64,000 nt of DNA from contig CAWKHF010000004.1 of NCBI GenBank assembly GCA_963849325.1, positions 479,619 to 543,618 of the forward strand, written 5' to 3'. The translations under genes were made by a program, and so were the position numbers. Of the stretch, positions 15,133 to 40,735 are shown in pieces. The first letter of the stretch is position 1. Every line of letters starts with the position of its first letter. The DNA comes from an uncultured Planctomycetota bacterium. Lineage in GTDB: Bacteria > Planctomycetota > Planctomycetia > Gemmatales > Gemmataceae. The notes under the pieces are model-generated. The model was given only the letters and a program-made list of their open reading frames with translations, did no database searches and had not been told where the DNA came from.

Positions 15133-16141
15133 TCACCACGGTCGAGGGCCACAAAGTCGAACATTGAGGAATCGATTCACCATCTGGAATCCGAACGAGG
15201 CCGCCAGGGCGACCGCAAGGGCGCTGAGGCCCAGACCGGCGACGTGGAAAACGGTTTGCCGGAAGGTCAGCGAGGAATCGCGGGATGGGGGCGTCAGGTC
15301 GGGTAGGGTCCGGTCGTCGCCCAGCTGGGACAGTAGCTTGCGGGCCGGTTCCTTGGCTGTGGCGGGTGGCGCCAGCTCCGCGGCCGGGTGGGGAGCGGGA
15401 TCCTTCGGCGCCGGTTGCGTCGATTTCGTGCCGCTTTCTTTCTGCGGTTCGCTGGGCGCCTTTCGCGGCTCCGAGGTGGTTTCGGCGGGGCGGTGACCTT
15501 CCTTCGGACGATCCGTCAGGGCGACCGGAGTCGTTCGCGCTTGGGCGGCGCACCAGACCGAGCGGGCGATCTCCAGCGTGTCCACTTCCAGGACCAGGCA
15601 CAAGAGCGTCGCAATGGCCAGCAGCGTGCCGGCCATCCGCCGTTTGTACCACCCGGAAGCACGGTCCATGATGCTGTCAAACCAGACGCCCAGCCGCTGG
15701 CGCACGCGGCTCCATGTCGTGTCCGGAGCAGCGGCCAATCGTCTCCAGGGCGACCTTGAAGTCGGAGTCCGACAGCTGCTGCACGATGCGTGCATAATCG
15801 TTGAAGGTGATCGGCTCGCCGCCCTCCCACTCCGGCGGCTTGATCAGCCGTAACACCGTCTCGGTGAACGCCCAGGCCGGCAGGTACGATGGGCCGCGCG
15901 CGTGGTCGTCGGGCGGCGTCAGGGTGTGGATCAGCGGTGCCTCGAAGAACTGCTCCAGCAGGCTGCGGTTCTGGCTGTCGTAGGCGCCCGTCAACACCTC
16001 GCGCAGGGCCGAAGCCAGCACCCTGGACCGCCAGCAGCGCCACGCCGCCACCCACTCGCCCGCCGCCGAGCAGACCGCCGCCAGGCCGCCGTACACCGCT
16101 AGCAGCGTCAGCACCACCTCCAACAACGGTGAGCCGAACAT
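15133..16141 (-). CDS. Multi-TM membrane protein at end of CIS operon (frameshifted)
   Basis: N-terminal TM (LEVVLTLLAVYGGLA), WFDSIMDRASGWYKRR plus TM, C-terminal TM GLSALAVALAASFGF; ORFs 15677-16156 and 15133-15795. Confidence 0.65.
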
Positions 16142-16156
16142 GGTCCTTCCCTCCAT

Positions 16157-17659
16157 TTACTCCGCCGCCTGGGACGTCGGTTGGGTTGCAGGTTTGGATT
16201 CAGGTTTGGCGATACGTCCATCCGGTGGTTTGGCGTCGCGATCAAAGATCCGGCGCAGGTCAAACCAGCCGTCGTGGTCCACCAGCAGAAGCGGCGCATA
16301 CGCGGGCGGAGGATTGTGCGGATGAAGGGACACTACGACCCGCGCGCCGTCCTTCGACGTGGTTGGCCAGATCACGTCGCGCGTGGACGTTCGCGCCGGA
16401 ATCATCCAGTAATCGCCGCGGCGAAAGAGGCGTGGTATCCGGTTGTTCTGGTCCTTGCCGACCGGAGTGTTGTCGAACCGCACCTGGACGCCATCGCCCA
16501 GATCGATCCATTTATTATCGCCGAGCGTTACCCATTTGGGTTTATGCTGCCATCGCCGCAAGAGCGGGTGCTTGGGCGCCGTCGGCAAGGTCATGCTGCT
16601 ACCTTGCGTGTCCAGAACAATTGTCCCCTCGTGCAGGTCCACGTCCTTGACGCGGAGAAACGGCCGGGCCGGGATCGGTTTAGGCTCGGTCATGCGCAGC
16701 GCGTAGGCGTCATCGACAAATTCCACCCAGTCGTTGCGGTGGAGGGTGGGACGTGGACCGCCTGCCGAGCCGAGGAGGTGGAGCGTAAGGATGCTCTGCG
16801 AACCGATGTTCGTGTTGTCGGGTATGACGACGGGAAAGATGGCCGAGGCGTTGTCGGGCGCCCACTTGAAGGCAAATTGATTCCGGTCAGGCTCGACAGC
16901 ATGGATCTCGACCCGGAACAACTGATTGTCCGCGCCGCGATAGCCAAACTCCGCATCCGAGGCGCAGAGATCCTGTTGGTCGGTCTGCTCGTTCCGCTGT
17001 CTCACCTGAGCGGCCATCCGTCCGGGGTACTTGCGACGCCGATTGTGATCCAGCAGCACCTTCTCGAACGCTTCGAACTCCTTGACCGTTAGCGCCTGGG
17101 TTGCATCCTTGACGGTGGCAATGAAAGGGTCGATGGGATTATCGAGTTGGAGGAGCTTGACTTGCCAGACCACACGGGTGCGGGTGGTCGTGTCGAGGTG
17201 GCCCAAGGCGGGGTCCTGAACCAGCGGGTCGAAGGCGACGCCGGCTGTCGCGGCGTCGCCGGCTTCGTAGCCCGACAGCTCGCGGAGCCAGACCTCGGCA
17301 TACACCAGATACGGCGGCTTGCCCACGGGCGGCACGGGAAAATCGGGCTGGGTACCGTAGTCGGGCTGAGCACTGTAGTTCGTCAGCCGCTCGTTCTCAC
17401 AAAGCAGGCCGTCCACGCAATAGTGGCCGGGGGAGATTTGCAGATCGTCCGGCTTGTCCATGGGCTGGATCTGAAATTCCCTGGCACTGGGTCCCCAGTG
17501 GGGGCCACGCAAGTCGCGGGCCAGTTGCCTCAGCCGGTACAGCTGGATCGCCGCCTGCTCGTTGAAGTCGGCGTCGAGCAGCACGCGGCCTTGCTGCAGC
17601 ACCACCTGGAGATAGTGGTTGCGGCGGTGGAAGCTATCGCGTGACAGGTCGGCGGACAT
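16157..17659 (-). CDS. DUF6519-like CIS protein
   Basis: MSADLSRDSF...VVLQQGRVLLDADFNEQ, GHYCVDGLLCEN, YRGADNQLFRVEIH, GDYWMIPART. Confidence 0.8.
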   Translation of the reverse strand: MSADLSRDSFHRRNHYLQVVLQQGRVLLDADFNEQAAIQLYRLRQLARDLRGPHWGPSAREFQIQPMDKPDDLQISPGHYCVDGLLCENERLTNYSAQPDYGTQPDFPVPPVGKPPYLVYAEVWLRELSGYEAGDAATAGVAFDPLVQDPALGHLDTTTRTRVVWQVKLLQLDNPIDPFIATVKDATQALTVKEFEAFEKVLLDHNRRRKYPGRMAAQVRQRNEQTDQQDLCASDAEFGYRGADNQLFRVEIHAVEPDRNQFAFKWAPDNASAIFPVVIPDNTNIGSQSILTLHLLGSAGGPRPTLHRNDWVEFVDDAYALRMTEPKPIPARPFLRVKDVDLHEGTIVLDTQGSSMTLPTAPKHPLLRRWQHKPKWVTLGDNKWIDLGDGVQVRFDNTPVGKDQNNRIPRLFRRGDYWMIPARTSTRDVIWPTTSKDGARVVVSLHPHNPPPAYAPLLLVDHDGWFDLRRIFDRDAKPPDGRIAKPESKPATQPTSQAAE

Positions 17660-17672
17660 CGCAAGCTCCATG

Positions 17673-19913
17673 TTAGTTAGGGAGATAAATAATCTGGACC
17701 TCGCTGCCGGCCGGGGTGAACTCGTCAACCCAGGCACGCAGGTAGTCGCGGCGCTGCGCGAAGTAAGCGTCGTGGAAGGCGCCCATCTCGGACTGGTCGC
17801 TAGCGCCGCGGCGCAGCTCCGCGGGGCCATCGACGTCCAGCAGCGCATATTCCGGATCGCCGTAGCGGCGGCTGCGGAAGCGCGGCCGGACGTGCGCCTC
17901 GATGACCGCCTTGTCGTCGCCCTTGTCTTCGCACTGCGGCGATGCAAGCGCGAGGTCCGGCTGACAGCGGTAGCGCGGCAGGGGCGTCTTGCTGGCGGGC
18001 GGTACGTAGCAAAAGTGGAAACAGCCCTGGCGACGCCGGGCCACGAAGACGCGGCCGGCGAATAGACAATCTTCGGCCAGCTCCACGGCGTGGACTTCGA
18101 CGCGGCCAAAAAACGTCGAGCGCTCGGCCAAAAGCCGCACGAGAGCGGCCGCGCAGTCGGGACTGCCCAGCGCGGGGCAGGGGCCGCCAGCGTCATCGAC
18201 GATACTATCGCGCACGGTCAGCGGCGGAGGCTCGCCTGTTCGCGTCGGCCCGCCCTCGCGCCCTTGCACCGAGATGGCGCCGACGATGCTCCGCTCGATC
18301 GCCACGCTGCCTTCCAGGCCGCGCAGGATCAGCGTCGGCCGGTGCTTGAGCTTCGGCTTGCCGCACGCGCCCAGCCCATTGCCCGGCACGATCGTGCAAT
18401 CGCGGATCGTGACGGCCTCCAAAGGTCCTCGCAGCACGAGCGGCCTGTCGCTGATCAGCAATCCGTTGAGCACAAGGCGGCCGCCCGTTTGGTCCTTCGG
18501 TCCCGGCTGAAAATGGCCGCCCTCACCGGGCGATCCCAACAGCACCAGGGGGTGGCGTCCCAGGGTAGCGCGGATTTCGATTGTTTTCTCCGCCGGGACC
18601 GTCAGCGGTTTGTCCAGATGAAACGGCCCGTCGTCGAGGAGCTCGATCACCGCATGCTTATGCTTCTCGGCGGCACACGCCGCAAGCGCATCAGCAAGGG
18701 TTTCAAAGATGGTTTTCCCTGGCCGCGCGTCTTTGGGGGCCTGCGCCGGAAACCCGTGGGTGAGCACGAACGCATGGCAGGCGGCCGCGGGCGTGTCGGC
18801 CGACCGAAAGTAATCGCCGCCGCCGATGTCGAATGGTACGCCGGTGTAGTAGCGGACCCACAGTGGCGGCGCTTGGTGAACATTCTGGTCCAGGCCCAGC
18901 GCGATGCGCCCGCTCTCCGGATCGACGGCGACCTCGTTGGCTTTCAACCGGACGGGGCGGCGCAGATCGGCCGGCACGATGCGCTCCAGCGGCACCGGCC
19001 CGTGGGCGAGGTCGCCCTGCCAGATGAGCAGGCTCTTGCCGGGGCCGTAGAAATCGCCCTTGTGATCGCGGAAGTCGCGCAGCCGGATCGGTGCGGGAAC
19101 TTCCGCTTCGCGCACGGGCCGGTCCAGGTCCGGCGGCCCGAGCAGCCGGCGCACCAGCGGGACGGGATTGCCCAGGGGGCTGAACGTGTAATCGTGCCGC
19201 CGTTCGTCCGGCCGGCAAACGCCGCGGTCGGCGCCGTTGTCGATACAGCAAGCTGGCGTTTTACCCCAGCGAGCGGGGCGCATCGTCCAGACGTAGAGAC
19301 CGACGCTGGTCATCTCGCCTCGCCCGCCGGCCGTCGCCCCGCGCAGATCGACCGTCCGCGTCAGCGTGGCGAATGGCCCCATGCCGCGGTCGAGCTCATC
19401 GTGCCGGCGGAGATCGACGAGCCGGCCGCGCTCCGGGTGCGGATAGTTGAGCGCGAAAAAGACGGCGGTGCGGTCGCGCAGCTCGACGGCGTGTCCGGCC
19501 CAGCCGCCGACGTCGCGGACCAGCGCCTCCAGCACGGCGAGCGTGCCCTTGCGGCGGCGGTAGGCGAGCGTGTTGGCGATGGCCCGCCGCTGTAAGAGCA
19601 GGGCCAGCCGCCGCCGGCCACGCGCGCTGTCGAGCTTGTCCGGCCTATCCGGCGCCGGCGCCGCGAGCGCCGCCGTCCCCAACAATGCCGCGACGTAGGC
19701 CACTGCCCAGGGATCGCACGTCTCGATGAACCAGTTCTCGTACAGCCGCGCGATGTCGTCCTCGACGACGTTGACCTGCTCCGCCACCACGCGGAGCAGG
19801 GCGCGGAGCGGCTGGCCCGTGACCTGATCGCGTGCGCGGATGGTGGCCGGCAGCAGATCGTACAGCCGATCCAGTCGTTCCGCGCCCGGCCGATAGGTGA
19901 GCACCGCGCTCAT
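17673..19913 (-). CDS. CIS baseplate wedge / phage tail protein (P2 gpI-like N-terminus)
   Basis: LYDLLPA, LYENWFIETCDPW, RRRKGTLAVLE, C-terminal SEMGAFH...EFTPAG. Confidence 0.8.
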   Translation of the reverse strand: MSAVLTYRPGAERLDRLYDLLPATIRARDQVTGQPLRALLRVVAEQVNVVEDDIARLYENWFIETCDPWAVAYVAALLGTAALAAPAPDRPDKLDSARGRRRLALLLQRRAIANTLAYRRRKGTLAVLEALVRDVGGWAGHAVELRDRTAVFFALNYPHPERGRLVDLRRHDELDRGMGPFATLTRTVDLRGATAGGRGEMTSVGLYVWTMRPARWGKTPACCIDNGADRGVCRPDERRHDYTFSPLGNPVPLVRRLLGPPDLDRPVREAEVPAPIRLRDFRDHKGDFYGPGKSLLIWQGDLAHGPVPLERIVPADLRRPVRLKANEVAVDPESGRIALGLDQNVHQAPPLWVRYYTGVPFDIGGGDYFRSADTPAAACHAFVLTHGFPAQAPKDARPGKTIFETLADALAACAAEKHKHAVIELLDDGPFHLDKPLTVPAEKTIEIRATLGRHPLVLLGSPGEGGHFQPGPKDQTGGRLVLNGLLISDRPLVLRGPLEAVTIRDCTIVPGNGLGACGKPKLKHRPTLILRGLEGSVAIERSIVGAISVQGREGGPTRTGEPPPLTVRDSIVDDAGGPCPALGSPDCAAALVRLLAERSTFFGRVEVHAVELAEDCLFAGRVFVARRRQGCFHFCYVPPASKTPLPRYRCQPDLALASPQCEDKGDDKAVIEAHVRPRFRSRRYGDPEYALLDVDGPAELRRGASDQSEMGAFHDAYFAQRRDYLRAWVDEFTPAGSEVQIIYLPN

Positions 19914-22900
19914 GGTTTCCTCCTGCGCAAGACCAGCGTGGCCGGCACTTTGGCCGACAGGTAAGCCAGCTCCGCCGCCACAAACTTCGCGTTCGCCGCG
20001 TCCCAGCGGGCCGCCTTGACCGGGATGGTCGCCGGTACCTCGACCGGCTTGCTCGCCTCTTGCGCGGGCGGCTGCGGCGGAGCGGCGGGCGGTTTGGCGT
20101 CGTCCGCGGCAGGCCGCCGCTCCGCCATACCCTGAATCTTCTCGGTGATCTGGTCGGGAGTCAGCACGTTGTCGTTTTCATCTCGTTCGGGGATGGCGCC
20201 GAACAGGTCGAGGTGAGCTGCGCGGACACCGGCGACACCCTGGACGGCCGCGAGGATGGGGCTGGCGTAAACATCCTGCGCCGGCTGGCGGTTGTCGAAA
20301 CCCAACAGCGACAGGAGACTTTTCTGCACGGCCGGCCGGACCTTGTCCCATTCGTAGTCCGAGTCGATGGTGAGGGTGACTTCCAGTACGATCAACAGCA
20401 GCCGCCGTGGAGCCAGCACGACGGGCAACTCGGGGTCGCCGAACTTGTGCAGCGATTGCAGCAGGTTATCGAACAGGGCCGAGCCGGGCAGCTGGTTATC
20501 GTCCTGGGCGGCGACGGTGACGTGGACGCGGAAGGCGCCGGCGGCGGCGAGGCGGACGGCGCGGGCCTTGGCGATGCCGGCGTAGGCGCGGGCGAAGTCC
20601 TCATAGTCGGCGACCGAGACGAGCCGTTCCAGCGCGGTCAAGCCGGTGGGGGTGTTGCGGCGAGCCTGGGCGAGTGGCTCGCGGTCCGCGCCGCCGGCGG
20701 CCGGCAGCGGGTTGACGACATCCTTGACGCCCGGCGGCCGGTCGCCCAGCTGCGTGATCTGCTTGGCCTTGACGTTGCCGGCCTGGCCCAGACCGGCGCG
20801 GTAGACGGCCCGAATATTCTCCACCCCGGTCGCCGGCCGCGCCCCCTGTCGGCCGTCGCCGAACTGAACCGTCGCCCCACCCTGCTCGTCGGTGTACACG
20901 GCATAGACGCGGTCGTCCGGCCCGGACCCGGTTAGCCGCTCGACCTCACGCCAGAGTACGTCGTTGACGCGCACCTCCAGGGTGTCGGCCGCCCCGCTGG
21001 GTCGCACGGCGGGCAGATAGGTGAGCGGCCCTTGCTTGAGGGCGAAGCGCTGGCGCGGCTTGGAGGCGTCGCCGTTGCCCATCACTTCGCGCTTGCTCTC
21101 GCCATGCGTGGCGTGGGCGACGTTGCCGTAGACGGTGACTGTGTCGCGGCGATATGCGAACTGGAGTTTCTGCTGCAAATGCACGATGGTATGCGGGCGG
21201 GCGGTTGTCCGCGTCGGCCCCTGCGGCCCTGGGTTGGTGGGGTCTAGACTCGGGCTGGTGGCGTCCAGGCTCTGCTCGACGCTGGCGATGGCGACCAGCT
21301 CCGCATCGCGGACGCCGCGCGTGCCGGGCAGATCCGTCCGCTCTCCCTCGATCAAGAGCAGCCGCTTCGCCTCCAGCCCGTCGATCAGCCCGTCCAGCTG
21401 CAAGAGATCGCCGAAAACGTCGGCGTCGTAAGGCTCCTCGGCCAACTCCTGCGGCTCGCCCTGTACCAGCACCGACGTGCCGCGCAGCGCCGCCAGCGAC
21501 GAATCGGTCGGATTGAGCCAGGGCGAATCGAGAAGCAGGCGCGTGACCTTGGCCGAGATGCCGAAGCCGACCTCGGCTACCGCATCGACTGCTTCGACGC
21601 GGTAAATGTCGGGCGCCGTCATCCCGGGTTGCGGCTGCGCATGCTGGATCGCGATGTGACTGCCCGGTGCGATCTTGTCATACGTCGCATCCAAGGCGAG
21701 CAGGCGGCGGCGCTCGGGTAACAGCGGAAACTCCAGCTCGCCCGAGATGAGATAGACGTCGGGCCCCTCCTTGGGGGATCGGACGAGCGTAATCCGGCCC
21801 ATAGGGAGTTCCAGGGTTCTTCGGGTAGGCCGGTTGAAGGGAACAGCGGGCGTGTTATCGACGGCGAACGTTAGCTGTTCTCCGGGCATAGTATCTTTGA
21901 TAACGCGGAGACTATACGTTACGTCCTGACTTTTGAAGGTCACAGTAAGGCCCGGAGTGTCCAACGTCACGGTAACTTCGATGCCGTTGGGGAATTGCTC
22001 TGGTTTTGGGGCCGAGGGATTAACCTTCTTTGTAATGACGTCCTCCGGAGGACCAATCGAGACTTGCGGCACGATGGGTTGGGTGGAAGAAGTGTTCACG
22101 GCTTCGATCGCGAAGGGAGTCAGCGCCAACGGCCACTCGCGAGTGATCGTAATGGGATTTTGATTCGCCCCGTAACCGAGAACGATGGTCCGAGGCGGAG
22201 CCGAGCTTCCGAAGGGGGCGGCGCTCGCACGCAGCACCTCCACGTTCGGCAGGGACTCCGGCTGGGACAGGGTCGCGTTCGCCACGGCGCTGGGAATTTT
22301 TCCTTCCACCTGCGGATGCAGCGCCTGGAACACCTGCCCGGCCGCGCCGGACTGGATGCCCTGCTTGGTGAGAAAGAGATCCTTGAGCGTCGGCTCGGGG
22401 ACCAGCTGCGCCGGTGGTGGCGTCACAAGGGTCGAGAGCAGTGTGTTGAATTCGTCGGCTGTATTCCGGGTCGGCCCCGCCAGAGCTTTAACGATTCCAT
22501 CCAGACGCGAGCCTCGGTCGGGCTGAAGCTGCTGCGTCACGCGGTTGGCGTAGACCTCCGCCTCACCCAGCGACAGGGGGTACGTCTCCAGAAACCGCTG
22601 CAACGCGGCGACCAGCGTGTCGAACCAGGGCTTGATCCGTGGGAACGCACCATCATCGAAAAAGGCTTCCTCCCGACGCCAGGCCACTAAAACGGCTGTG
22701 CCGTTAATCTGCTGCATCACCAGACGCAACGTATGAGGCACTTGGTAAAGCCGGAGGACGCGTACCTGAACCATCTCGTCGCCGATCGGCTTGTTCAGCG
22801 CATTAAGCAGGGTACTGAGTTCGCCCGAAGACAACGTCTTGACCACCGCATTAAACGACTGGATGGAATGGAGGAAGGCTTTCCACGCGTCCTTGATTCG

Positions 22901-30819: not shown

Positions 30820-30836
30820 TTCAAATCCGCCCCACT

Positions 30837-31604: not shown

Positions 31605-32730
31605 TTTTTGGCGTGCTTTCCGAGAAAACCTGGCGTTGCACAGTGGGTGAGGTCGTCGTCTCCTCGGCCGTCTTGGTGTGGCAACGCTTGTCTTTCTTGA
31701 ACGCGGCGTCTTGCTCGTCCGGGTAGATCACACCCTGGAAATCGGGGCCGACGCCGAGAGCGGCCGGAATCCCCCGACTCACTTCCCACGCCTGCCGCTC
31801 GGACTTGTCGCGAACCTGTGCGTGCGTGAACGTGCCATTAGCACAGACCACGAGATCCTGACTGCACTTTTTCATCGAGGTGAAGCGACCCTTGGGGATC
31901 GCCATCCAGGTGTCGTTGTCGCTGCAGGTGACCCCGGCTTCGCACTCCTTGTCGCAGGTGAACAGTGGCCGGTATTTCTTTGTCTTTGAGGCGTTCCGTG
32001 TCCCCTCGGGACACTTGACACCGTTCGCGTTGTCCTCGCATGCCCACTTGCTTTTGCAGGCCAAGTCCGCACACGTCCCCTCGTCCAGAATCCGCCCCTG
32101 ATGGATCGCGGCCCGCTGGAGGACGGCGGGGGACGCGACGCCGCTGCCCAGCCCGGAGGATGACGAGACGTCATGCAAGTGCGCCGCTGTGGCCGCCGCC
32201 TCGCGCTCGAAGGTATCGTCTGCCGGCCCGATCATCAGGTTTGCCGTGGGATCAACAGCGTTATTCTGCTGCACCACATGCGTCAACTCGTGAGCCAGCA
32301 GTGTCCTGCTGGTAGATGTCGAGGGCAGGTAAGTTCCCGCGCCGAAAACGATGTCGCGACCGACGGTGTAGGCCAGCGCACTGACGGCACTCGCCGACTC
32401 GGCAGCCACCGCATCGGTGTGGACGCGGACGCCGCTGAAGTCGCGGCCGAAGCGCGGCTCCATGAAGTCGCGCGTCGCCGCGTCCAGCGGTTGACCCGGC
32501 GAGCGCAGCACCTCATGCACGATTGCAGGAACCTCGCCCACCGGCCCCGAACTTGTGGCCGCCCGCTGGAGACCCTGCCCGCGCTTCTTGCGGCACGTCT
32601 CGCACTCCGCGCCCCCGGACGTGTGCGTCCCGCAAGCGCAGGCACGCTGCAACGTCCCCGCCCGCACACGACACACCTTTGGGGCGACCGGGACGCTCTC
32701 TCTTTGCCTTGCCGCGTCTGGTGTCTTCAT
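31504..32730 (-). CDS. DUF4157 (eCIS core) protein with Cys-rich extension
   Basis: GQPLD..TRDFMEPRFGRDFSGVRVHTD, ALAYTVGRDIVF, HExxH LLAHELTHVVQQ. Confidence 0.92.
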   Translation of the reverse strand: MKTPDAARQRESVPVAPKVCRVRAGTLQRACACGTHTSGGAECETCRKKRGQGLQRAATSSGPVGEVPAIVHEVLRSPGQPLDAATRDFMEPRFGRDFSGVRVHTDAVAAESASAVSALAYTVGRDIVFGAGTYLPSTSTSRTLLAHELTHVVQQNNAVDPTANLMIGPADDTFEREAAATAAHLHDVSSSSGLGSGVASPAVLQRAAIHQGRILDEGTCADLACKSKWACEDNANGVKCPEGTRNASKTKKYRPLFTCDKECEAGVTCSDNDTWMAIPKGRFTSMKKCSQDLVVCANGTFTHAQVRDKSERQAWEVSRGIPAALGVGPDFQGVIYPDEQDAAFKKDKRCHTKTAEETTTSPTVQRQVFSESTPKNGSMQTQGRKVADSSGADRESRARKRGSGPCDR

Positions 32731-32984
32731 GTTCCCATGCTCCGATATACCGCCCCGGCGATTTGGCCACCCAGGTCTTCGGGCGCCGGTTGCCGGCCCA
32801 GCTCAATCACACCTCCCGTGAGGCGATCCACCGAGCCGCCGGCTCGCACCGCCGCGCTCGGTCCCTCGTCCGCCAGCAGCCGGGCCAGCTCCGTTTCGAC
32901 CGCTTGCTGGATCAGCGCCGCGTCTCGACGCTCGATCGGCAGGCTATCCAGCACCAGTCGCTCGATGTGGACGTGAATCTTCAT
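32727..32984 (-). CDS. Small CIS-associated protein
   Basis: MKIHVHIERLVLD...AVETELARLL; own ATG, merged with ATPase in ORF track. Confidence 0.7.
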   Translation of the reverse strand: MKIHVHIERLVLDSLPIERRDAALIQQAVETELARLLADEGPSAAVRAGGSVDRLTGGVIELGRQPAPEDLGGQIAGAVYRSMGT

Positions 32985-34983
32985 GACACCGCTCCGTCCG
33001 CCGGCGGCCAGCGGAAGTCCGACTCGTGGATCACGCGCTCCGCCGCGCACGTACTCGTCACGCACCGCAGCTAGGACTTCGCGCATCGTCACCGGCGTGC
33101 CGGCCGCGGCGGCGCGGAACGCCGCGTTCAGGGCCGCGCCGTGGATGTTGCCGCCACTCAAATCCATTCGCGCCAGGCGCGTTGTGTCCAATCCCGCGAT
33201 CGGTACGCTGCTTTCGCCGGTTGGGAACGCGCCGGCCCACAGCCGTCGTCGCTCCGCAAGTCCCGGCATGGGAAACTCGACCACGAAACGCAGCCGGCGC
33301 AGGAAGGCCGCGTCCAGCGCCGCGCGGAAGTTCGTCGCCAGGATCGCCAGTCCGCGGTACGATTCCATGCGCTGCAGCAGGTAGTTGACCTCGATGTTCG
33401 CGTAGCGGTCGTGGCTGTCGCGCACCTCCGTGCGCTTGCCGAACAGGGCGTCGGCCTCGTCGAAGAAGAGAATCGCGCCGGACTCCTCGAAGGCGTCGAA
33501 CAGCCGGCCCAGGTTCTTCTCGGTCTCGCCGATGTATTTGCTGACCACCGCGCCCAGGTCGATGCGGAACAGATCCAGGCGCAAGTCGTTGGCCAGCACT
33601 TCCGCGGCCATCGTCTTGCCGGTGCCGCTGGGACCACTGAAGAGGGCCGTGATCCCAAGGCCGCGCGTCAGGACGCGGCCGAATCCCCAGTCCTCATAGA
33701 CCGTCGCGCGGTGGCGCACCTGCGAGGCCACTCGCCGCAGCGCCTGTTCGACCGCCTCCGGCAGCACCAGGTCGCGCCACGTCGCTCGCGCGTCGATCCG
33801 CTGCGCCAGTCCCTCGACGCGCGGCCGGGCTTGCTCACGGCAGGCGTCCCATGTGGCCTCGGCTGCCGCCGCGAGGTCGCCCTCCACCGAGGCGAGTGCG
33901 AGCCGGGCCGTCTGACGGATGGCGGGTACGTTCAGGTTGAACTGCATCGCCAGCCGCCGCGCCGCCTCGTCCGAACCCGGACCCAGGGCCGTCTGCCACG
34001 CGGAACGCTGCTCCGCGGGCTGGGGTTTGGCGACCTCCAGCGTGACGGCCTGGCGCCCCAGCCGTGGCAGCCGCTCCCGAACCCCCAAGAGCATCGGCGA
34101 GGGGCAAGATGCCAAGAAGCGCGCCACGGCCGGGCCGCCGCCCGCCTCGTCGGCGTCGAGGTACAGCGCCAGGGGCAACAGCCAACTCTCGCGCCGCCAC
34201 AGCCGGGCCAGCGCTTCCAGTTCGGCCGGGGCGTGCGGCAGGTGCTCGGCCGGCAGCCGGCACAGGATCAGGCCGACCGCTCGCGCCGCCTCGCCCGCGA
34301 CCAGCCGTTTGCTGGCGGGGTCCGGGCCCGTCAGCTGAATCACCGGCAGCGGGGCTTGCTCGTCGGCCGCGGCCCGCCAGGCGCGGACGGCCGCCGCCGC
34401 CACCGCGCGCTGGGAGGGGGGCACTTCCTCGGGCCGGTCTCCGTCGTCCGCCGCGGCCACCAGGCCGTCCAGGCGGTCGTCCAGGCGGTTGAGGCCCTTC
34501 AGGTAGTGCAGGATGCGCTCGTCGATGCGCAGCGCCGCGGCGATCAGGGGCGTGGCCGCCGGCTGATGCACCTCAATCAACCGCAAGGCCCGCAGCGGCC
34601 GATCCGGCGCCAGCGCCGCCCACTCCGGATTGTCGAACAGGCTCAGCGCCAACGCGAAGGTCGGGTAGGCGCGGTGCGGATCATCCTGGGTCTGCGCACA
34701 CAAGCCGCCCACGCGCGTGTCCAGCTCCATCGCGGTACACAAAAGGAGCACATCGCGCTCGAACGCCGTCAGCCCAAGGCGCAGCGCCAGGGCCGCCAGC
34801 GCGGGCGGGGGGTCCGCCGCCTCCAGTTCGCGCACCTGCTTCTCGGCCCGAGCCAGGGCGCCGGCGGGATCCGCGCCGTCCGTTCGGACGCCCGTCGCAC
34901 ACCGGCTCAACCGCAGGCGCACGCTTTCCAGCGCCGCTCCCAGGTGGCTAATGTTGCGCCGTCCAGTCCGCTGCCTCGTTCAC
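32981..34983 (-). CDS. AAA+ ATPase (Afp15/Pvc15-like); frameshifts near both ends
   Basis: GPSGTGKT, VVSKYIGETEKNL, LFFDEADALFGKR, DSHDRYAN, LDAAFLRRL. Confidence 0.92.
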
Positions 34984-36362
34984 AGGTCCGGCTTCCTTTC
35001 GGGGATGTCCCGGCGGTACGTGTCCTTAATTTGCGGTACGTCGCTTTCCGGGTCGAACAGGAAACTGTCCACGCCGTCCACCCGCAGCCGCACCGCGGCG
35101 CGGTCCATCTTGGCGAGCGGCCTGGGGTAGAGAATCACTTTTACGTTGTCGTCCGGTGGTGGCAGCGGCGCGTCGCTGAGCCGGAATTGAAATTGGTCCA
35201 CGGCGGCGACGATGGAGCCGGCCGGTATTTCCACCGCGCTTAGGAGCAGCGACACGCGCTGGTTGGGCTGCACCTCGGGGAACACGTCCACTTTCAGCAC
35301 CGCGGCGTTCGACGACTCCAGCGAGATGTCGGGCACAAGGGAAAACGTCAGTTCGTTGGTCGTCCAGTGCCTGGGGCTGGGCTGCCACGGCGGAGCATTA
35401 TCCGGCAGCAAGCCGTCGGGCCAGACGGTCGCAGCAACGGTATAGAAGCCGGCCGGCCAGGGTTCGTCGCCGGTGAACCGAAACGCAATGCGCGTGGCCG
35501 TGCGCTGGGCGGGGGGCACGGGGACAATCCGCGGCTCCGAGAACGTCGTGTGCCGGAATGCGAGCGTCACGGCGTTGCCGCCAAGGTTCGTGCCGTCGAT
35601 CCATAAGAGATCCGAGACGTGGCCGCCCGACAGCGACCGCTTTGGCCGTGGCCCCTCGGTCGGCAGGCCGGGCGGGTTGGGGTAAGGAAACTGGGGGGCC
35701 GTCAGGGAAGGGATGCCGGACAGGGCCTCGGCCTCGAACCCCTCGGGGACCGACCGCCGGCCGCGCGTCAGCACCGGCAACGGCGTCTTGCTCGGTCGCG
35801 TGCTTTCGATCAGGACCACCGACGCTTCGTAACCCACCGACAGTCGGTAGTGCGTCTGGAACCCCGACCACAACTTGCTCAGGTGCTCGATGCTGAGCGG
35901 CTGCGGCGTCAGCTTGACGCGCTCCGGCTGCTCCAGGAGTCCGCTGTTATGCAGCAAGTCCTCGTCCACGAACTCGGTGAAATCCGCGGTGGTGAGGATG
36001 GAGTGATCGTGCAGCGCGCTCATGACGCGCCCGAGCACCTGGTACTCGTCGTTCGGCGTATTCACGAAGAACACGGTGATCAGGTAGGACAGGTTCAACG
36101 CCAGGGGCGGCGGTACTGGCTCGTTGGGTTTGCCGCGGCCGGCGATGGGATCGTTGCGCCAGGCGGCGTTGGGGGCGACGTGATAGAGGAAGAGGCCCAG
36201 CAGGTTGCCGTCCTTCTTGCGGACGTTCTCGTCCGGCGGCGCGGTGCTGATCTTGCAGGCGATGGCCGGGAAACCCGGTTGGCCGGGCTGTTCCCGCAGG
36301 GCCTTGTCCAAGAGACCCATCACGGTGCGCGTGACGGCGGAGATGGCCAGCGCGTTGCTCAT
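34980..36362 (-). CDS. DUF4255 / Pvc16-like tail terminator-cap
   Basis: MSNALAISAVT, LFLYHVAPNAAWRN, PLALNLSYLIT, YRLSVGYEASVVLIE. Confidence 0.9.
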   Translation of the reverse strand: MSNALAISAVTRTVMGLLDKALREQPGQPGFPAIACKISTAPPDENVRKKDGNLLGLFLYHVAPNAAWRNDPIAGRGKPNEPVPPPLALNLSYLITVFFVNTPNDEYQVLGRVMSALHDHSILTTADFTEFVDEDLLHNSGLLEQPERVKLTPQPLSIEHLSKLWSGFQTHYRLSVGYEASVVLIESTRPSKTPLPVLTRGRRSVPEGFEAEALSGIPSLTAPQFPYPNPPGLPTEGPRPKRSLSGGHVSDLLWIDGTNLGGNAVTLAFRHTTFSEPRIVPVPPAQRTATRIAFRFTGDEPWPAGFYTVAATVWPDGLLPDNAPPWQPSPRHWTTNELTFSLVPDISLESSNAAVLKVDVFPEVQPNQRVSLLLSAVEIPAGSIVAAVDQFQFRLSDAPLPPPDDNVKVILYPRPLAKMDRAAVRLRVDGVDSFLFDPESDVPQIKDTYRRDIPERKPDL

Positions 36363-37329
36363 CAGCGCCCTCCTCCGGAGCGGCGGCGCAGGTATTCCTC
36401 CAGCGTCATCACGGGGGCCGACGCCGGCTCGCGGCGGACCGGTGTCGCGGGGGCGGCAACGGCACGCACCTCGACCCGGCCGATTGTCACGGAAATGACC
36501 GGCTCAGGCGGAGGCATCGCCGGTTGCGACTCGGAGGATTTCGCGGCTGTTTCCGGCACACGCGCGGCCAGTTCTTCGCCGGCGGCGTCTCCGCAGTCCG
36601 GGGACGCACCGCTGGCGGGCCTTGCTGTGCGGCGTCGGGGGCGGCGCGAGCGTCGAGCGGACGCGCCGGCGGCATCTCCAGCGTGGGATGCGGACGCGGC
36701 ACTGGGGGGAGAGGGCGGCGCGAGGGTTCGGCTGCTTCCTCGACGTTCGATCGTCGCGCAGGGGCAGACGAGGATCGCTTCGATTTTGGCCCGGCGCTGT
36801 CATCCGTGTCTGCGGCAGCTCGGGATACAGGCGTCACGGCGGCCGGATGCACGGACGGACGTGCGATCTCTTCCGCGAACGTCGCGCGGCGGATGCCGGC
36901 CGCGGGGACGGGGGCCGGGGTGGTGTCTTCACTTCTGCTGATCGGAAGCGCGTCGGCAGGGGCGGAGGGCATCGGGGCGGCGATCTGTTCGAGCCGTTGA
37001 GAGAGCGCGACAGGCCGAGGGTGTGGAGAGAGTGGCGGGGCGTATCGGTTGCCGATTTCCGTCGGCGGGGGGAGATCGATGGCCGGACGGGTGGGGCGAT
37101 GGGAGGGAACCTCAGACGGTGCTTCGGTCTGGACCGTGATTTCCTCTTCTTGGCCCTCACCGGCTTCGCTGCCGACCATCCCACGGCGGTGCGCGTCCCG
37201 CTGTCCGGCGCGAGACGGATCGCCGGCCGGGTCCGCAATGGGGGGCGCGAACCGCGGCCGCGCGAGAGGGCGGATACCCTCGGCAGCGCCGAGCGCGAGA
37301 CCGGCCAGATCCGTCAAAAGATCGCTCAT
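36362..37329 (-). CDS. Pro/Ala-rich CIS-associated protein (frameshifted)
   Basis: MSDLLTDLA start, low-complexity middle, C-terminus VISVTIGRVEVRA...TLEEYLRRR. Confidence 0.65.
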
Positions 37330-38059
37330 TTGCCGAGCATCTCGAGGTACGCCCACCGGCGGCGGGCGGTCATCGCCAGGATATCGGCCTCCCGCCACCC
37401 GTAGGCGGAGGCCAGCGCGTGGACCTCATGCAGAAGTCGGCGCGCCTGCGTCTCGATCTCACGCCAGAGATAGCCCGGGGCGTCCAGCGGCGTCAGCCAC
37501 CCGTGGCCGCAGGCGGGACAGCTCAGCTCGAAGCGCATGCGAGCTTGCGCGTCCGCTCGCTCCAGCGCCGCGCTCAACTCGGCCAGGGCCGGCTCCGGGA
37601 TCTGCCCGGCTTCAAGCCGCTCGTCGCCGCACCAGGCCTCCACGACCGTACGGCGGAGCAGGCGAGCGCGGGCCTCGGCGACATCGCCGGCTCCCTCCAG
37701 TTCCAGCAGCGCGCGGCTATCGGGCAGGCGCAGCGCACCCGCACCGCGCCGACCTGCACGACCTGCTCGCCGTCCTCGTCGGCCGGCGCCTCGCCCAGAA
37801 GCCGCGGCACGTCCAGGCTCAGCTCAACCGCTTCGCCACAGGAGGGGCAGTTGGCCAGTCCGTCCAGGGTTGGCCCGAACAGCGACTGGCGCATCGCCAG
37901 CAAGGCCCGGTCGCGGCGGCCAACGTCCCAGGCCGCGATCTCTTCGGCGTCGATCTCGGGGAAGGCCGCCGCCAGCAGTCCCAACGCCCGGCGCGGCGCT
38001 GATTTGCCCTGCCCCCACTCCCGCAAGCCGATCAGTTCCTCTGCGCTCAGCGCGTGCAT
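37326..38059 (-). CDS. Phage-tail/baseplate-associated protein with two CxxC motifs (frameshifted)
   Basis: ANCPSCGEAVEL, ELSCPACGHGW, EVHALASAYGWREADILAM. Confidence 0.75.
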
Positions 38060-38589: not shown

Positions 38590-38610
38590 GATTTAGCTCC
38601 TGGTGCCGGC

Positions 38611-40735
38611 TCAGGTCTGCGTCTGACCGGCGATCTGCTGGATGCGAAGGATGACGAACTCCGCCGGCTTGAGCGGCGCGAAGCCGACGACGACGATGAC
38701 CTTCCCCAGGTCGATGTCGCGCTGGGTGGTGGTGGAACTATCGCACTTGACGAAGTAAGCCTGCGACGGCGTGCTGCCCTGGAAAGCACCGTTGCGGAAG
38801 AGATCCTGCATGAAGCTGCCGACGTTAAGGCGGAGCTGCGCCCACAGCGGCTCATCGTTGGGTTCAAAGACGGCCCACTGGGTGCCGCGATACAGGCTCT
38901 CTTCGATGAACAGCGCCAGCCGCCGCACCGGGATGTACTTGTAGTCGTCGGTGAGCTGGTCCGCTCCGCGGGTGGTGCGCGTGCCCCAGACAACGCTGCC
39001 GTAGACGGGGAAAGTTCGCAGGCAATTGAGGCCAACCGGGTTGAAAATGCCGTTCTCCTCGTTCGTTAACGTGAGGGACAGGCCAAGGATGCCCGTGAAC
39101 GTCGCGTCGATTCCGGCCGGCGCCTTCCACACGCCGCGCGTGTTGTCGGTTCGTGCGAAGATTCCGGCCAGCGCACCGGACGGCGGGAACTGGTCGCTGC
39201 GGCCGGTAAAAGGGTCCGTCTCGGTGATGTGCGGGAAAAAGACTGCGGCGTTGCGAGCCGCTTCGCCCGTGAGGTTAAGGTCGGCGGAGATTGCCACAGT
39301 AGCCTTGCCCTTAAGGGCCGTCAGGTCTTTGTCCCATGACGTTAGCCCGTCCACGATATAGAAGGCCCGGCGCTTCTGGCAGTAGGCGGCCACGTCCCCG
39401 TAGGGGAAGGAGGGCATATCGTCGCCTCGGACATCGGGGGGGATGCACAACAAGTTGAACAGGTCCGCGTTCTCCAGGGCGTATAACCCTGTCTTTTTCA
39501 GTGGATCGCCCGTGTAGTCATCCACCGTTAGGGGATCGCTGTCTGCCAGCTTGTCGGCGTTGGACGGCCCAGTGCAGGTCGGCGGGTTATTTTTGTCATC
39601 GAAGGGATTTTTTCCCGGCAACGGGTCGGGGTGGGACTTGGCGCGACTCCGGAGAGGGGGGACTTGTCCTTCCATCTTACTAACTGGGACTCCGCAGCCA
39701 GAACCTTGTCCGCCTGGCGGGGAGCACGACTACGGCCGAGAGATTTTGATGCTTCTCGACCGTTACGCCATCCGTGACCGTCAGGTTGAAGAGGGAGCCG
39801 GACGTTTCCCCAGGCAATAACGGGCGGACTTTTTGATCGACGCGAACACGCAGCGCGCCGCCCCAAGTGCCCGCACCTGCGGCGGTCAGGTTCAAACGGT
39901 CGCCGTCCCACTTGATATGAGCATGGGTGTCGGGAATCGCTTTCTTCACGGCATCGGCGGCGGCCCACTGAAGGACGAGGAGATCCATCTGGCTATTGTC
40001 AAAGTTGGCGATGGTATCGAGCGCCGAGCCCACGTCAGTGGAACTCGTACTCTTGAGCTTCGTTACACGATCTTGCACAGCTTGCTTGACGGCGTCGATG
40101 TCCTTCGTCACGTCCACGCCTGTCGTGACCACGTTTCCAGCCGCGGTAATGAGTTGATTGACGGCATCGCGGATAGCCTTAACTAGATCCAATGCCAGGT
40201 CCTTGTGAGCCTGGAAGTAGGCGTCTGTCTTCCTCCGCACCGCTTCGGGGATGTCGCTCGCTGAGACCGGCCCGCGATTTTTGACGGCATTCGCCACCAG
40301 GTTGGCCGCATTAATCCTGACCGGAACAGGTGGATTTTCTTTGCCAATGTTGTCGGCCGCGGTTTTCACGTCCGCCTGCGCCTGTGCGGCCGTGGTTGCG
40401 CTGGCCGCCTTCTGGGCAACCGCTTCGGCCGCCGACTTAGCCTGCGCCCGCTCTCCTGTTTTGAACCGGGAGTGGAAGAGACGCACGATAACCGCCTGGG
40501 AGCCGCCGTTGAGGAAAAAGTCGCGGACGGCGAAGCTCATCGAACTGTCTGCGGCCAAGCCGCCGAAGGATCGCTCGTAGTCCGCGAAACTTGTGATGGT
40601 GATCGGATTGTTCTCCTCGCCGCGTGAAGCTCGTCCCAGAAACGCCGTGATCGAGGTGGCGACGCCGACAATCGTATGCACGCCGCTGGGGATTTCCTCA
40701 ATGTAAACGCCGGGGTAGGTCGGTGCGACGGGCAT
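38611..40735 (-). CDS. Contractile tail sheath protein (frameshifts near 39680-39730)
   Basis: PTYPGVYIEE, RGVWKAPAG, WAVFEPNDEPLW, VGFAPLKPAEFVILRIQQ. Confidence 0.95.

Follow-up and report, generated by a model that had tools for sequence, protein, structure and literature searches.

The window, the whole stretch of 64,000 nucleotides that was analysed, carries a complete set of lineage-II contractile injection system (CIS) genes on its minus strand, from position 15133 to 40735, as detected with Pfam and NCBIfam. The operon comprises one sheath, a tube, a Pvc16_N cap, an AAA+ ATPase, a DUF4157 protein, a tube initiator, a split VgrG, a PAAR-like protein, gp25, two baseplate-J genes, a gene for a 746-aa protein, DUF6519, and a protein with three transmembrane (TM) helices. 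The locus is almost certainly a genuine phage-tail-like CIS, with all of its genes in one operon, and the original prediction of a complete system was borne out, each listed part being found on the minus strand where it had been placed. The same genes occur in the same order in 7 of the 400 other planctomycete genomes sampled, hence the gene set is far beyond chance, and G441 shows the same order. The surroundings are a mobile-element-rich island of a planctomycete genome, with abundant transposases and recombinases. The planctomycete-like character proposed for the host agrees with DUF1559, which we take to be a marker of the phylum Planctomycetota: 75 matches were found in the source assembly (G000; 8.16 Mb, 14 contigs, completeness 84.7%) and none in the 14 control genomes.

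The tail sheath (38611..40735; about 705 aa) lies in two frames, with a break near 39680-39729. Its pieces (39680-40735 and 38611-39675) match Gp18_domIII_N and Phage_sheath_1/1C (Phage_sheath_1C, 2.9e-11), and the single ORFs of all seven relatives map onto both window ORFs; therefore, the two are one gene, and the single sheath of the original prediction stands. Among solved chains, the sheath was closest to 8bky/8bl4 (3e-61) and then 9ezm (5e-60), and the Afp and PVC sheaths followed at about 1e-41 (about 1e-41 to 1e-38 when R-type pyocins are included). The inner tube, of the gp19/Cis1 type, extends from about 38047/38069 to 38589 with a frame break near 38302-38332; its ORF matches Phage_T4_gp19 (1.4e-24) over profile positions 1-77 only, and orthologues with 65-75% identity run on into the next frame. 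It is followed by a conserved gene (37326..38059; frame break near 37700), which had no match in Pfam, PHROGs or PDB sequences and whose G094 orthologue spans two frames. The GC-rich stretch at 36363..37325, for which the GC3 plot is ambiguous as to the reading frame, gave no Pfam or PHROGs family in any frame and probably holds one further CIS gene.

Next lie the Pvc16_N/DUF4255 cap, or tail terminator (34980..36362; Pfam 5.9e-44), an Afp15-type AAA+ ATPase with an N-terminal winged-helix domain (32727..34922; AAA 3.3e-25, WHD 1.4e-22; 31-45% identity to relatives), and a DUF4157/eCIS_core protein (31504..32730; eCIS_core 6e-32) with an HExxH motif (HELTH at residue 147) and a Cys-rich C-terminal part. 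By analogy with the role given to DUF4157 in the excerpted text of PMC8213781, the latter is a candidate cargo or cargo-handling protein. The ORF at 30837..31604 matched no family in Pfam, NCBIfam or PHROGs and had no tblastn match in the seven CIS-bearing relatives. The Afp7-like tube initiator of the CIS_tube family (30166..30915; PF19266, 3.2e-07) was found in six of these relatives, with no match in G197, and a small ORF of 122 aa without a family (29801..30169) has tblastn matches in all seven and in G441.

VgrG is split into a gp27-like N-terminal half (28683..29800; NCBIfam VgrG_rel positions 288-347), with a break near 29500 and a G094 orthologue across two frames, and a gp5-like OB-fold spike half (28145..28666; Phage_base_V 8.3e-21; VgrG_rel positions 373-506); the halves are distinct ORFs in all five informative relatives. 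The predicted PAAR-like tip protein (27778..28125) is a weak call by its matches (DUF4280, E 0.022; PAAR_motif, E 0.097), but the ORF is kept in G275, G094 and G391. The baseplate begins with the gp25 wedge (27422..27781; GPW_gp25 2.2e-14) and J-like protein A (24597..27417; about 820-940 aa), which matches TIGR02243 in its C-terminal part (3.3e-18) and has three frame breaks, near 27000, 26650 and 25440; the G094, G391 and G275 orthologues span the three frames. J-like protein B (19910..24600; about 1560 aa) has one break near 23700-23900, also seen in orthologue mapping; TIGR02243 is matched at positions 23-138 in the first frame and at 315-654 (1.4e-60) in the frame that follows, and the J-like chain of 9gtp was its only solved J-like match (1.7e-12). 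The 746-aa protein of the baseplate region (17673..19913) shows 46% identity to L091 over 811 columns and 25-29% to G275, G094 and G391; it had been called a wedge, and its status as a conserved CIS gene holds, whereas no Pfam or PDB match backs the wedge identity. The operon ends with a DUF6519 (eBAP5) protein of about 500 aa (16157..17662; PF20129 3.9e-56) and the 3-TM membrane protein of about 335 aa (15133..16141; frame break near 15705-15710). With Pfam and PHROGs, neither the operon nor its flanks yielded a holin or endolysin family, as had been proposed. The tape measure is absent too, also as proposed, which is the rule in lineage II according to the excerpted text of PMC6899500.

At least nine frame changes fall inside the CIS genes over 25.6 kb, as located by the GC3 plot and orthologue mapping. 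Such a number of breaks, in an island with so many transposases and recombinases, could mean that the locus is a decaying remnant whose mutations are real and whose CIS is no longer produced. However, rpoC of the same genome is also spread over three frames (2 shifts within some 4.2 kb); since this essential gene is broken likewise and at a similar density, the breaks are not CIS-specific and are most likely indels of the assembly. Additionally, GC3 is high in the expected frame for every CIS gene on both sides of each break, full-length similarity to orthologues is retained on either side, and orthologue mapping revealed no premature stop or deletion beyond the stops closing each shifted frame. 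Judged from these sequence features, the breaks are very probably assembly errors, and the decay reading is highly improbable.

The CIS fits eCIS subtype IIa/IIc, an assignment by gene-content traits only, because it carries J in two copies, VgrG as two ORFs and a PAAR-like gene, and lacks a tape measure (subtype traits from the excerpted text of PMC6899500). The original prediction saw no recognisable fibre. This does not hold, since DUF6519 has been published as eBAP5, a tail-fibre anchor domain of eCIS (PMC12923769, in the portion available), and the DUF6519 protein is a candidate for a tail fibre or a component of the baseplate periphery. Its versions in the window and L091 are the shortest, at about 500 aa versus 640-1160 aa in relatives. 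In agreement with the statement that no planctomycete CIS had been characterised, no describing paper was found among those listed: "Planctomyc" had 0 occurrences in the main texts of PMC8213781, PMC12210884, PMC12923769 and PMC6899500, and the available part of PMC11937823 holds no such description either.

The membrane gene closes the operon, as predicted, starting 15 nt past the DUF6519 stop behind a GGAGG-like motif. Its product has three hydrophobic segments, and no other product of the operon shows clear TM helices; the intact homologue from L091 spans both frames of the window gene. It belongs to a large, unnamed family (4500 representatives by phmmer; 593 or more loci confirmed among GTDB representative genomes) that matches no entry of Pfam or PHROGs. 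The family conserves its TM helices and cytoplasmic domain, and the periplasmic segment is disordered, also in the AF2 model of the L091 homologue (pLDDT 79). With its topology assigned by the positive-inside rule only, the protein would span the inner membrane with three helices; a conserved helical domain of about 125 residues would face the cytoplasm and a disordered linker the periplasm, and the C-terminal helix is likewise conserved. In L091, the closest relative with known context, the membrane gene likewise lies straight after DUF6519, and the synteny extends over the 746-aa gene, DUF6519 (36% identity) and the membrane gene (48/32%). The window, L091 and P0002-P0004 form one clade (SH-aLRT 100) on a long, well-supported branch, which suggests specialisation.

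From the absence of a lysis cassette and the presence of this membrane protein, a tethered intracellular CIS had been proposed. As a membrane adaptor, the 3-TM protein would use its cytoplasmic domain to bind either the short DUF6519 or a J-like protein at the baseplate periphery and so dock it at the cytoplasmic membrane, and the CIS would fire from inside the cell in a T6SS-like manner. Its position directly behind a baseplate-periphery gene, kept in L091, is consistent with such docking, and the short DUF6519 of both may lack the distal receptor-binding part. The two nearest solved sheaths come from CISs with accessory membrane proteins, at values well ahead of Afp and PVC, and in haloarchaeal clade IIa the membrane-bound mode correlates with the presence of a conserved membrane protein whose cytoplasmic domain has about 150 residues (PMC11566945, as excerpted). 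In the Acidobacteriota sample, Pvc16_N was present in 5 of 14 family-positive versus 10 of 187 family-negative genomes (OR 9.8, p 0.0016), an odds ratio that ignores relatedness and genome size; of the ten, G544 and G672 are unpublished genomes.

Nevertheless, the family was not found in six of the seven planctomycete genomes with the same CIS and lies on a different contig from the CIS in the seventh; the five actinobacterial DUF6519 genomes searched, one of them the unpublished G808, gave no member either (A4 profile, run without a positive control). Only 2 of 80 family loci have a CIS marker within about 35 kb, and Pvc16_N is absent from 51 of the 80 sampled family genomes. In general, this CIS type does not include the membrane family as a conserved component. 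As the family is not conserved with the CIS, its recurrent neighbours are lytic enzymes rather than CIS genes, and a fibre-type gene is present, the step to a tethered CIS is not supported; the architecture of the 3-TM protein also differs from those of CisA and Hbor_38620, and we regard the tether as unlikely.

The neighbourhood scan covered 111 same-strand immediate neighbours at 80 family loci. Catalytic peptidoglycan hydrolases were found at 11 loci (Amidase_2 at 7, Peptidase_M15_4 at 2, Phage_lysozyme at 1 and Muramidase at 1) and phospholipases at 5 (Patatin at 3 and Tle1-like at 2); the other 64 have no hydrolase or lipase neighbour, and for most of the family both a hydrolase and a CIS are missing from the vicinity. 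As controls, 117 ORFs located 4-8.5 kb off in the same loci were scanned; none carried these hydrolases and none these lipases, and one carried SLT+M23. The Fisher p values, 2.8e-4 for hydrolases and 6e-5 for hydrolases plus lipases, overstate the association, as related loci are not independent. The 15 wall-enzyme-type neighbours examined (the 11 catalytic hydrolases, L074, L079, L087 and the G667 amidase) all lack a signal-peptide-like N-terminus, and hydrolase-paired members occur at no fewer than six places of the family tree. In the G441 CIS region, a family member abuts an Amidase_2+SH3 gene on the same strand at the cargo-region end; in that of G667, where Pvc16, sheath and tube follow shortly downstream, 4 nt separate the member from an Amidase_2+SH3 gene. 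L091 has a patatin gene 1.2 kb downstream, and in a related ESM Atlas cluster PG_binding_1 is present on 40% of members, a lead only.

Because the recurrent neighbours are signal-less wall hydrolases and phospholipases, our leading, though tentative, reading of the membrane protein is a lysis or release factor, the very function that had seemed missing; we give this role somewhat less than an even chance. For Afp and R-pyocins, lysis cassettes adjoining the CIS cluster have been described (PMC12961389, as excerpted). Against this role, classical holins are much smaller than a membrane protein of about 335 aa. In the window, no gene beside the membrane gene or elsewhere in the operon was found to code for a peptidoglycan hydrolase or lipase, Amidase_2 was not found in the source genome (85% complete), and tblastn detected no relatives of four lytic neighbours there. 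The family is also absent from PHROGs, had no tblastn match in the 50,697 phage genomes and gave only 2 loci in IMG/VR.

The signal-less hydrolases and lipases could also be injected effectors, with the membrane protein doing another job, and Tle1-like, patatin and amidase enzymes are classical injected antibacterial effectors as well. The gene may be an accessory one of the cargo region, carried where some CIS loci vary at their 3' end, and could encode, for instance, an effector acting on membranes, an immunity-type protein against lytic effectors, or an effector of cell suicide or defence; or it may simply adjoin the CIS without any part in it. Effectors occupy the 3' end of eCIS operons (PMC8213781, in the part available), relatives have DUF4157 genes in that slot, and the family is widespread without CIS, as the counts above show. 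Some family neighbours are defence-like (SLATT_3/DUF4231, SIR2-NB-ARC and AAA_15/AAA_21), and in L078 an opposite-strand ftsY cuts the member off from the CIS. That a single membrane partner goes with no fewer than six unrelated families of enzymes speaks against a specific immunity role, and a chance neighbour is at odds with the tight spacing and the synteny with L091. The conservation of the TM helices and cytoplasmic domain next to a disordered periplasmic segment, and the long branch of the window clade, also weigh against these roles, which we jointly consider doubtful, although less so than the tether.

Returning to lysis or release, particles would assemble in the cytoplasm. The baseplate would form from gp25, the two J-like proteins and the 746-aa protein, with DUF6519 at the periphery, around the split VgrG/PAAR spike; tube and sheath would polymerise next and be capped by Pvc16, while the AAA+ ATPase and the DUF4157 protein may serve in assembly or cargo loading. 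The last gene product would act as a large holin-like membrane permeabiliser, so that untethered particles leave the producer and act extracellularly via the DUF6519 fibre-type protein. Gene content, order and conservation, the frame breaks and the neighbourhood statistics are observations, and the assembly route, topology, lysis role and extracellular action are what we infer from them; taken as a whole, lysis role included, this account falls just short of an even chance.

Among known systems, Afp/PVC and R-type pyocins are cytoplasmic phage-tail-like particles released by lysis of the producer, with lysis genes adjoining the cluster (PMC12961389, as excerpted). Their cassettes consist of small phage-type holins and endolysins, whereas the window has one large 3-TM protein with no adjacent hydrolase; its family has no tblastn match in 50,697 phage genomes. 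Their sheaths are also more distant. The nearest solved sheaths are those of cytoplasmic or membrane-bound CISs, an observation that speaks against lysis. The second-best match belongs to the haloarchaeal T6SS-like CIS of clade IIa (9ezm; PMC11566945, in the part available), in which the membrane protein with the cytoplasmic domain varies among related clusters, as here. Its Hbor_38620 protein, likened to the window protein by description only, has six TM helices and is encoded ahead of the cluster, on its upstream side, and its host is an archaeon with an S-layer envelope, unlike the window host.

The cytoplasmic CIS of Streptomyces coelicolor with CisA (8bky, 8bl4, 9gtp; PMC10066040, PMC12237407; these entries were assigned to papers from the search listing alone) gave the best sheath match and the sole J-like match, and there, too, the gene for an accessory membrane protein directly follows those of the baseplate. 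CisA is bitopic and its periplasmic domain is folded; the window protein, in contrast, has three TM helices, and its periplasmic linker is disordered. According to its paper, the Streptomyces cluster has no fibre genes, while the window locus has DUF6519; that cluster belongs to subtype IId, with one afp11 and a contiguous VgrG, versus two and a split VgrG in the window (PMC6899500, as excerpted). For eCIS IIa/IIc (dbeCIS, Chen et al. 2019), the excerpted main text of PMC6899500 mentions neither Planctomycetota nor a terminal 3-TM gene as in the window. In gene content, these subtypes share with the window the two afp11 copies, the afp8/VgrG split into gp27-like and gp5-like parts, the PAAR-type gene and the absence of afp14, together with sheath, tube, gp25, AAA+ and DUF4255.

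The contractile injection system (CIS) of the original prediction was borne out by Pfam and NCBIfam matches on the minus strand from 40735 to 15133, and the locus is confirmed as a lineage-II CIS, a fresh example of an already known class. The genome (G000) is represented by an assembly of 8.16 Mb in 14 contigs, with 65% GC and a completeness of 84.7%, in which the window occupies C4:479619-543618. All seven eCIS markers were found in one cluster: sheath, tube, gp25, baseplate J, VgrG-type spike, DUF4255/Pvc16, and AAA+. The tail sheath lies on the start side of the operon (the 40735 end). The same strand encodes a gp19-type inner tube, a Pvc16_N/DUF4255 cap, a winged-helix AAA+ ATPase, a DUF4157/eCIS_core protein, a CIS_tube protein, VgrG in two adjacent ORFs (first a VgrG-related N part, then the OB domain), and gp25. 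Two TIGR02243/Baseplate_J genes, J-like A (24597-27417) and J-like B (19910-24600), were delimited with the help of orthologue mapping. The DUF6519 protein (16157-17662; PF20129, 3.9e-56, profile positions 1-189 and 264-496) and the membrane gene (15133-16141) complete the minus-strand operon; the latter has three hydrophobic helices and, by its sequence, encodes the sole clear membrane protein of the operon. The PAAR-like ORF was matched weakly (DUF4280, E 0.022; PAAR_motif, E 0.097) and is kept in three relatives. No capsid, portal, or terminase gene was found by Pfam among the 23 flanking ORFs across the window that passed the GC3 filter, so the locus is not a prophage. TssM, TssJ, and TssL were absent from the matches of the general Pfam scan of window ORFs, and PHROGs gave no match for the 14 proteins searched. 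The PDB sequence search resulted in no match for Pvc16, the 746-aa protein preceding DUF6519, the DUF6519 profile, or the gene after the tube.

In a GC3 frame plot, the coding frame switches inside several CIS genes, and at least nine breaks were confirmed by mapping single ORFs of relatives onto the window. By this orthologue mapping, the breaks fall on the minus strand in the sheath (about 39680-39729), the tube (about 38302-38332), the gene after the tube (about 37700), the VgrG N part (about 29500), J-like A (three, within 24597-27417), J-like B (about 23700-23900), and the membrane gene (about 15705-15710). Two sheath paralogues were considered and rejected, as the orthologues of relatives map as one gene. 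Outside the window, the essential rpoC of the same genome (G000:C1:338780-343005) is spread over three frames in about 4.2 kb. The break density is about 0.35 per kb in the CIS versus 0.47 per kb in rpoC, and because an essential gene is broken at a similar density, the breaks are most likely assembly indels and not decay. The rpoB region upstream of rpoC also appears broken. Indel errors seem to run through the entire assembly, and a gene that looks like a pseudogene in it is suspect until compared with reads.

The passages of Chen et al. 2019 (PMC6899500) on gene content place two afp11 copies in subtypes IIa and IIc, a split afp8 in IIa, IIb, and IIc, and a PAAR gene in I, IIa, IIc, and IId, and describe afp14 tape-measure homologues as generally missing in lineage II. 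The window carries two afp11 counterparts, J-like A and J-like B, and its VgrG halves are adjacent ORFs that are also separate in all five informative relatives (5/5). By gene content (the afp11 copies, the split afp8, no afp14, and a PAAR match that is weak), the window CIS would fit IIa/IIc. The split hub/spike, the two J-like genes, and the missing tape measure to which the original prediction had drawn attention were all seen, and going by the same passages they are ordinary for lineage II (PMC6899500).

The CIS was not seen in close relatives: the Pvc16 protein query matched none of ten same-genus genomes (0/10) and gave one weak match among 40 relatives. Among 400 other sampled genomes of the phylum, seven have DUF6519, and all seven share the CIS genes and the gene order, usually with DUF4157 genes coming next. 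With G000 counted, 8 of the 401 genomes sampled carry the CIS. In viral contigs, no match was obtained for the C-terminal part of J-like B. Mobile-element genes lie on either side of the CIS (7957-14278 and 44751-63811) and comprise a ParB-like gene (7957-8790), a TraG/VirD4 coupling protein (9150-11078), a serine recombinase (12470-14275) that runs convergently toward the end of the operon, a DUF3102 gene, two DDE transposases, an HTH_17 protein, and the N-terminal fragment of an integrase. WD40 and metabolic genes are also among the Pfam matches of the flanks. The surrounding mobile genes, together with the absence of the CIS from the ten same-genus genomes, suggest an integrative or conjugative island, and the locus is most likely part of a mobile island. 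The WD40/beta-propeller genes (41049-44025, plus strand) are divergent from the CIS start. At the far side of the window, a DUF1559/N_methyl gene (57880-58278) spans profile positions 1-102 of 268 only and is directly followed by a DDE transposase gene (58346-59554), which looks like a transposase insertion into one of the 75 DUF1559 copies of the genome. DUF1559 gave 75 matches in G000 versus 0 in 14 control genomes, an abundance that we take to mark G000 as a planctomycete.

That no planctomycete CIS was known to have been characterized agrees with the literature found: judged by titles and abstract starts, no report of one turned up. No word beginning with "Planctomyc" occurs in the main texts of PMC8213781, PMC12210884, PMC12923769, and PMC6899500, whose supplementary locus tables may yet list planctomycete loci, and PMC11937823, judged from part of its text, concerns Myxococcota. 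The locus thus adds a lineage-II system from a phylum without a described CIS in the literature found.

The statement of the original prediction that the operon has no recognizable fibre no longer holds, because DUF6519 has been published as eBAP5, one of the five N-terminal domains that anchor eCIS tail fibres to the baseplate, with 658 genes, in the part of PMC12923769 that deals with these domains. The DUF6519 gene of the window is placed as an eBAP5 anchor is: it closes the baseplate module, behind the J-like genes and the 746-aa gene. The DUF6519 proteins of the window and of a metagenome locus (L091) are about 500 aa long and consist nearly entirely of DUF6519; relatives have 640-1160 aa. 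The longest protein, from genome G275, has 1163 aa among those of the window, L091, L104, L108, L110, L112, L114, and L115. Going by these lengths, the distal receptor-binding part may be absent from the proteins of the window and L091. The two shortest proteins (window 16157-17662 and L091:2568-4058) are the two directly preceding the membrane gene. The DUF6519 protein had no match in viral contigs.

The two window pieces of the membrane protein join to about 335 aa and align end to end with homologues of 300-360 aa. HMMER with the C-terminal piece retrieved 4500 representative proteins at E <= 0.001, 205 of them at E <= 1e-10, and the search with the N-terminal piece, in which longer proteins were sought, resulted in no match. 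No Pfam family spans the fold in 20 tested homologues or in the window pieces, and the family is without a PHROGs family. An AlphaFold2 model was made for the intact L091 homologue (pLDDT 79, pTM 0.66). It consists of TM1, followed by a helical domain (residues 37-144), a long helix carrying the conserved WFD..MDR.SGWYKR motif that continues into TM2, a disordered linker (209-270), and a conserved C-terminal helix (271-311). By the positive-inside rule, the conserved domain would be cytoplasmic and the linker periplasmic. Foldseek of the model against the PDB gave no match at E <= 0.001, and the best VIA-align match, the Plasmodium RIFIN helical domain at Z 7.8, is within the noise range of the tool for helical models. 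A complex prediction that paired the DUF6519 protein of L091 with residues 1-215 of its membrane protein scored 0.00, without controls, and was weighed neither way. Two family members are fusions: P0111 carries a C-terminal class-3 lipase, echoing phospholipase neighbours of the family, and P0093 carries a bacterial Ig domain.

For linkage of this family to CIS loci, we searched GTDB representative genomes with a narrower alignment (A2), which gave at least 593 confirmed loci, and took the best 80 of them. In tblastn with the window CIS proteins, CIS genes lay within 10 kb at one of the 80 loci (L078), and a DUF4157 gene lay within 10 kb at L069. Of the 80 genomes, 29 contain Pvc16_N at some place; it is on the same contig and within about 35 kb of the family member only in L069 and L078, and 250 kb off in L048, distances that take contig numbers as accession order, which was borne out for L069 and L078 by the coordinates and the lengths of the contigs. 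At L078, the membrane gene lies upstream of the CIS but is separated from it by ftsY, and this locus was rejected as an operonic case because ftsY is on the opposite strand. Contig C5 of genome G441 (L069) carries, on one strand, a CIS of the same architecture, then four DUF4157 genes, then LysM, LRR, TPR, and Amidase_2+SH3 genes, and then the membrane gene, 22 kb after DUF6519. A cargo region of about 20 kb separates the CIS and the membrane gene in this genome (37% GC; L069, L118, L119). In a sample of 201 Acidobacteriota genomes, the family was found in 14, Pvc16_N in 15, and both in five. Pvc16_N was thus present in 5 of 14 family-positive versus 10 of 187 family-negative genomes (OR 9.8, Fisher p 0.0016), raw counts that ignore relatedness, genome size, and completeness and include the unpublished G544 and G672 among the ten. 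In one of the five genomes (G667), the membrane gene is followed after 4 nt by an Amidase_2+SH3 gene, and a sigma-54 activator, Pvc16, sheath, and tube come next, all on one strand.

L091 is the sole metagenome locus found with close homologues, and its order is that of the window: counterparts of the 746-aa gene (46% identity) and of DUF6519 (36%), then a membrane gene that is intact, codes for 363 aa, and matches the two window pieces with 48% and 32% identity. L091 also has a patatin gene 1.2 kb downstream; of the genes downstream at L091, window positions 11000-15300 hold no remnants. A quick maximum-likelihood tree (89 rows) joins the window and L091 with the proteins P0002-P0004 in one clade (SH-aLRT 100) on a long stem. 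Family-wide, linkage to CIS loci is mostly lacking in the 80 loci; for the clade of the window it holds, as far as can be seen from L091 and the window. Of seven planctomycete genomes that carry the same CIS, six are without a family member and one has a member on a different contig, and none was found in five actinobacterial DUF6519 genomes searched with the A4 profile (without a positive control; G808 is unpublished, and a sixth genome, G868, was left out). For these reasons, the membrane gene is dispensable for this CIS type. That it is a passenger, or has another role of the cargo region, is less likely than not but still a substantial possibility. Among 50,697 phage genomes, tblastn gave no match for the family; L123 and L124 were the only members among 2.9 million viral contigs of IMG/VR (A2), and the subfamily alignment A3 had no match in viral contigs.

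The immediate same-strand neighbours of the membrane gene were scanned with Pfam at the 80 loci (111 ORFs). A catalytic peptidoglycan hydrolase was found at 11 loci, namely Amidase_2 at L027, L034, L045, L065, L069, L070, and L076, Peptidase_M15_4 at L046 and L085, Phage_lysozyme at L025, and Muramidase at L029. Three further loci had a wall-related domain only (PG_binding_1 at L087, SH3_3 at L079, and Peptidase_C92 at L074), and five had a phospholipase (Patatin at L040, L055, and L081; Tle1-like at L063 and L084). The control of 117 ORFs, 4-8.5 kb away at the same loci, contained none of these hydrolase families (0/117), none of these lipases (0/117), and one SLT+M23. The resulting Fisher p values, 2.8e-4 for hydrolases and 6e-5 for hydrolases plus lipases, overstate the case because related loci are not independent; the members paired with hydrolases stand at no fewer than six separate places in the family tree. 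Among 15 wall-enzyme-type neighbours (the 11 catalytic hydrolases, L074, L079, L087, and the G667 amidase), not one has a signal-peptide-like N-terminus. A repeated position beside cytoplasmic lytic enzymes of several unrelated families would be expected for a generic holin-like partner but not for a specific immunity protein. In a related ESM Atlas cluster, 40% of the members carry PG_binding_1, which is no more than a lead. When the neighbours within 4 kb were clustered all against all, no family dominated (at most 6/80), and the hydrolases were missed. A tight clade of L034, L045, L065, L070, and L087, which spans Myxococcota, Acidobacteriota, Bacteroidota, Gemmatimonadota, and Pseudomonadota, pairs with Amidase_2/PG_binding_1 genes, and this looks like a two-gene cassette moving between phyla.

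A signal-less endolysin alongside, as for a holin, was thus seen at 11 of the 80 loci and in G667, but not in the window, where no hydrolase adjoins the membrane gene; G000, at 84.7% completeness, has no Amidase_2 and no relatives of four lytic neighbours. Phage holins have about 60-150 aa, whereas the membrane protein has about 335 aa and comes without a PHROGs family or a phage-genome match. Because lytic neighbours occur family-wide, the gene is missing from most such CIS, and a fibre-type gene is present, a role in release or lysis would be a better bet than a tether, although we hold it tentatively and at somewhat less than an even chance. The broader lead is an unnamed 3-TM family of about 4500 representatives that lies repeatedly by signal-less wall hydrolases and phospholipases and, now and then, in CIS clusters. 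If this family is a non-phage holin-like release factor, it would explain the exit of some eCIS and of cytoplasmic lytic enzymes.

CIS are known in three modes, as released particles, cytoplasmic cell-death devices, and membrane-anchored guns, and the genes that decide the mode are only beginning to be identified. The original prediction suggested that the membrane protein may tether the system inside the cell. The linkage tests do not support this reading, and the family-wide association with lytic enzymes, the absence of the gene from most CIS loci of the same type, and the presence of a fibre-type gene speak against it. Two precedents speak for it, as far as the portions of the two papers used here describe them: CisA, which is encoded directly after the baseplate genes and is required for firing (PMC12237407), and, in haloarchaeal clade IIa, a six-TM protein with a cytoplasmic domain of about 150 residues that correlates with the membrane-bound mode (PMC11566945). 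The window sheath is closest to exactly these two systems. Its C-terminal piece matched PDB chains 8bky and 8bl4 best (3e-61), followed by 9ezm (5e-60), the Afp and PVC sheaths (about 1e-41 to 1e-38), 7b5h (3e-37), and 7adz (1e-34), and the sole PDB match of J-like B was 9gtp (1.7e-12). Of these entries, 8bky and 8bl4 appear to stem from the work on the Streptomyces cytoplasmic CIS, 9ezm from that on the haloarchaeal T6SS-like CIS, and 9gtp from that on CisA. Due to this likeness of the sheath to the CisA-type and haloarchaeal systems, a tether is kept alive, as an unlikely reading. Slightly more improbable is a new kind of CIS membrane adaptor, in which a member of a lysis-associated family, recruited in the small clade of the window, L091, and P0002-P0004, would bind the unusually short, receptor-domain-less DUF6519 protein and dock the baseplate to the cytoplasmic membrane, giving a T6SS-like or cell-suicide CIS in planctomycetes with an anchor unrelated to CisA/Hbor_38620. 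If the protein is an anchor instead of a release factor, it would be the third independent invention of CIS tethering.

The Streptomyces cytoplasmic CIS (IId) has a single afp11 and a contiguous VgrG, whereas the window has two J-like genes and a split VgrG. CisA is bitopic with a folded periplasmic C-terminal domain, whereas the window protein, compared by description, has three helices and a disordered linker predicted to be periplasmic. In the J count, the VgrG split, and the membrane-protein architecture, this locus differs from a Streptomyces-type CIS with CisA (IId).
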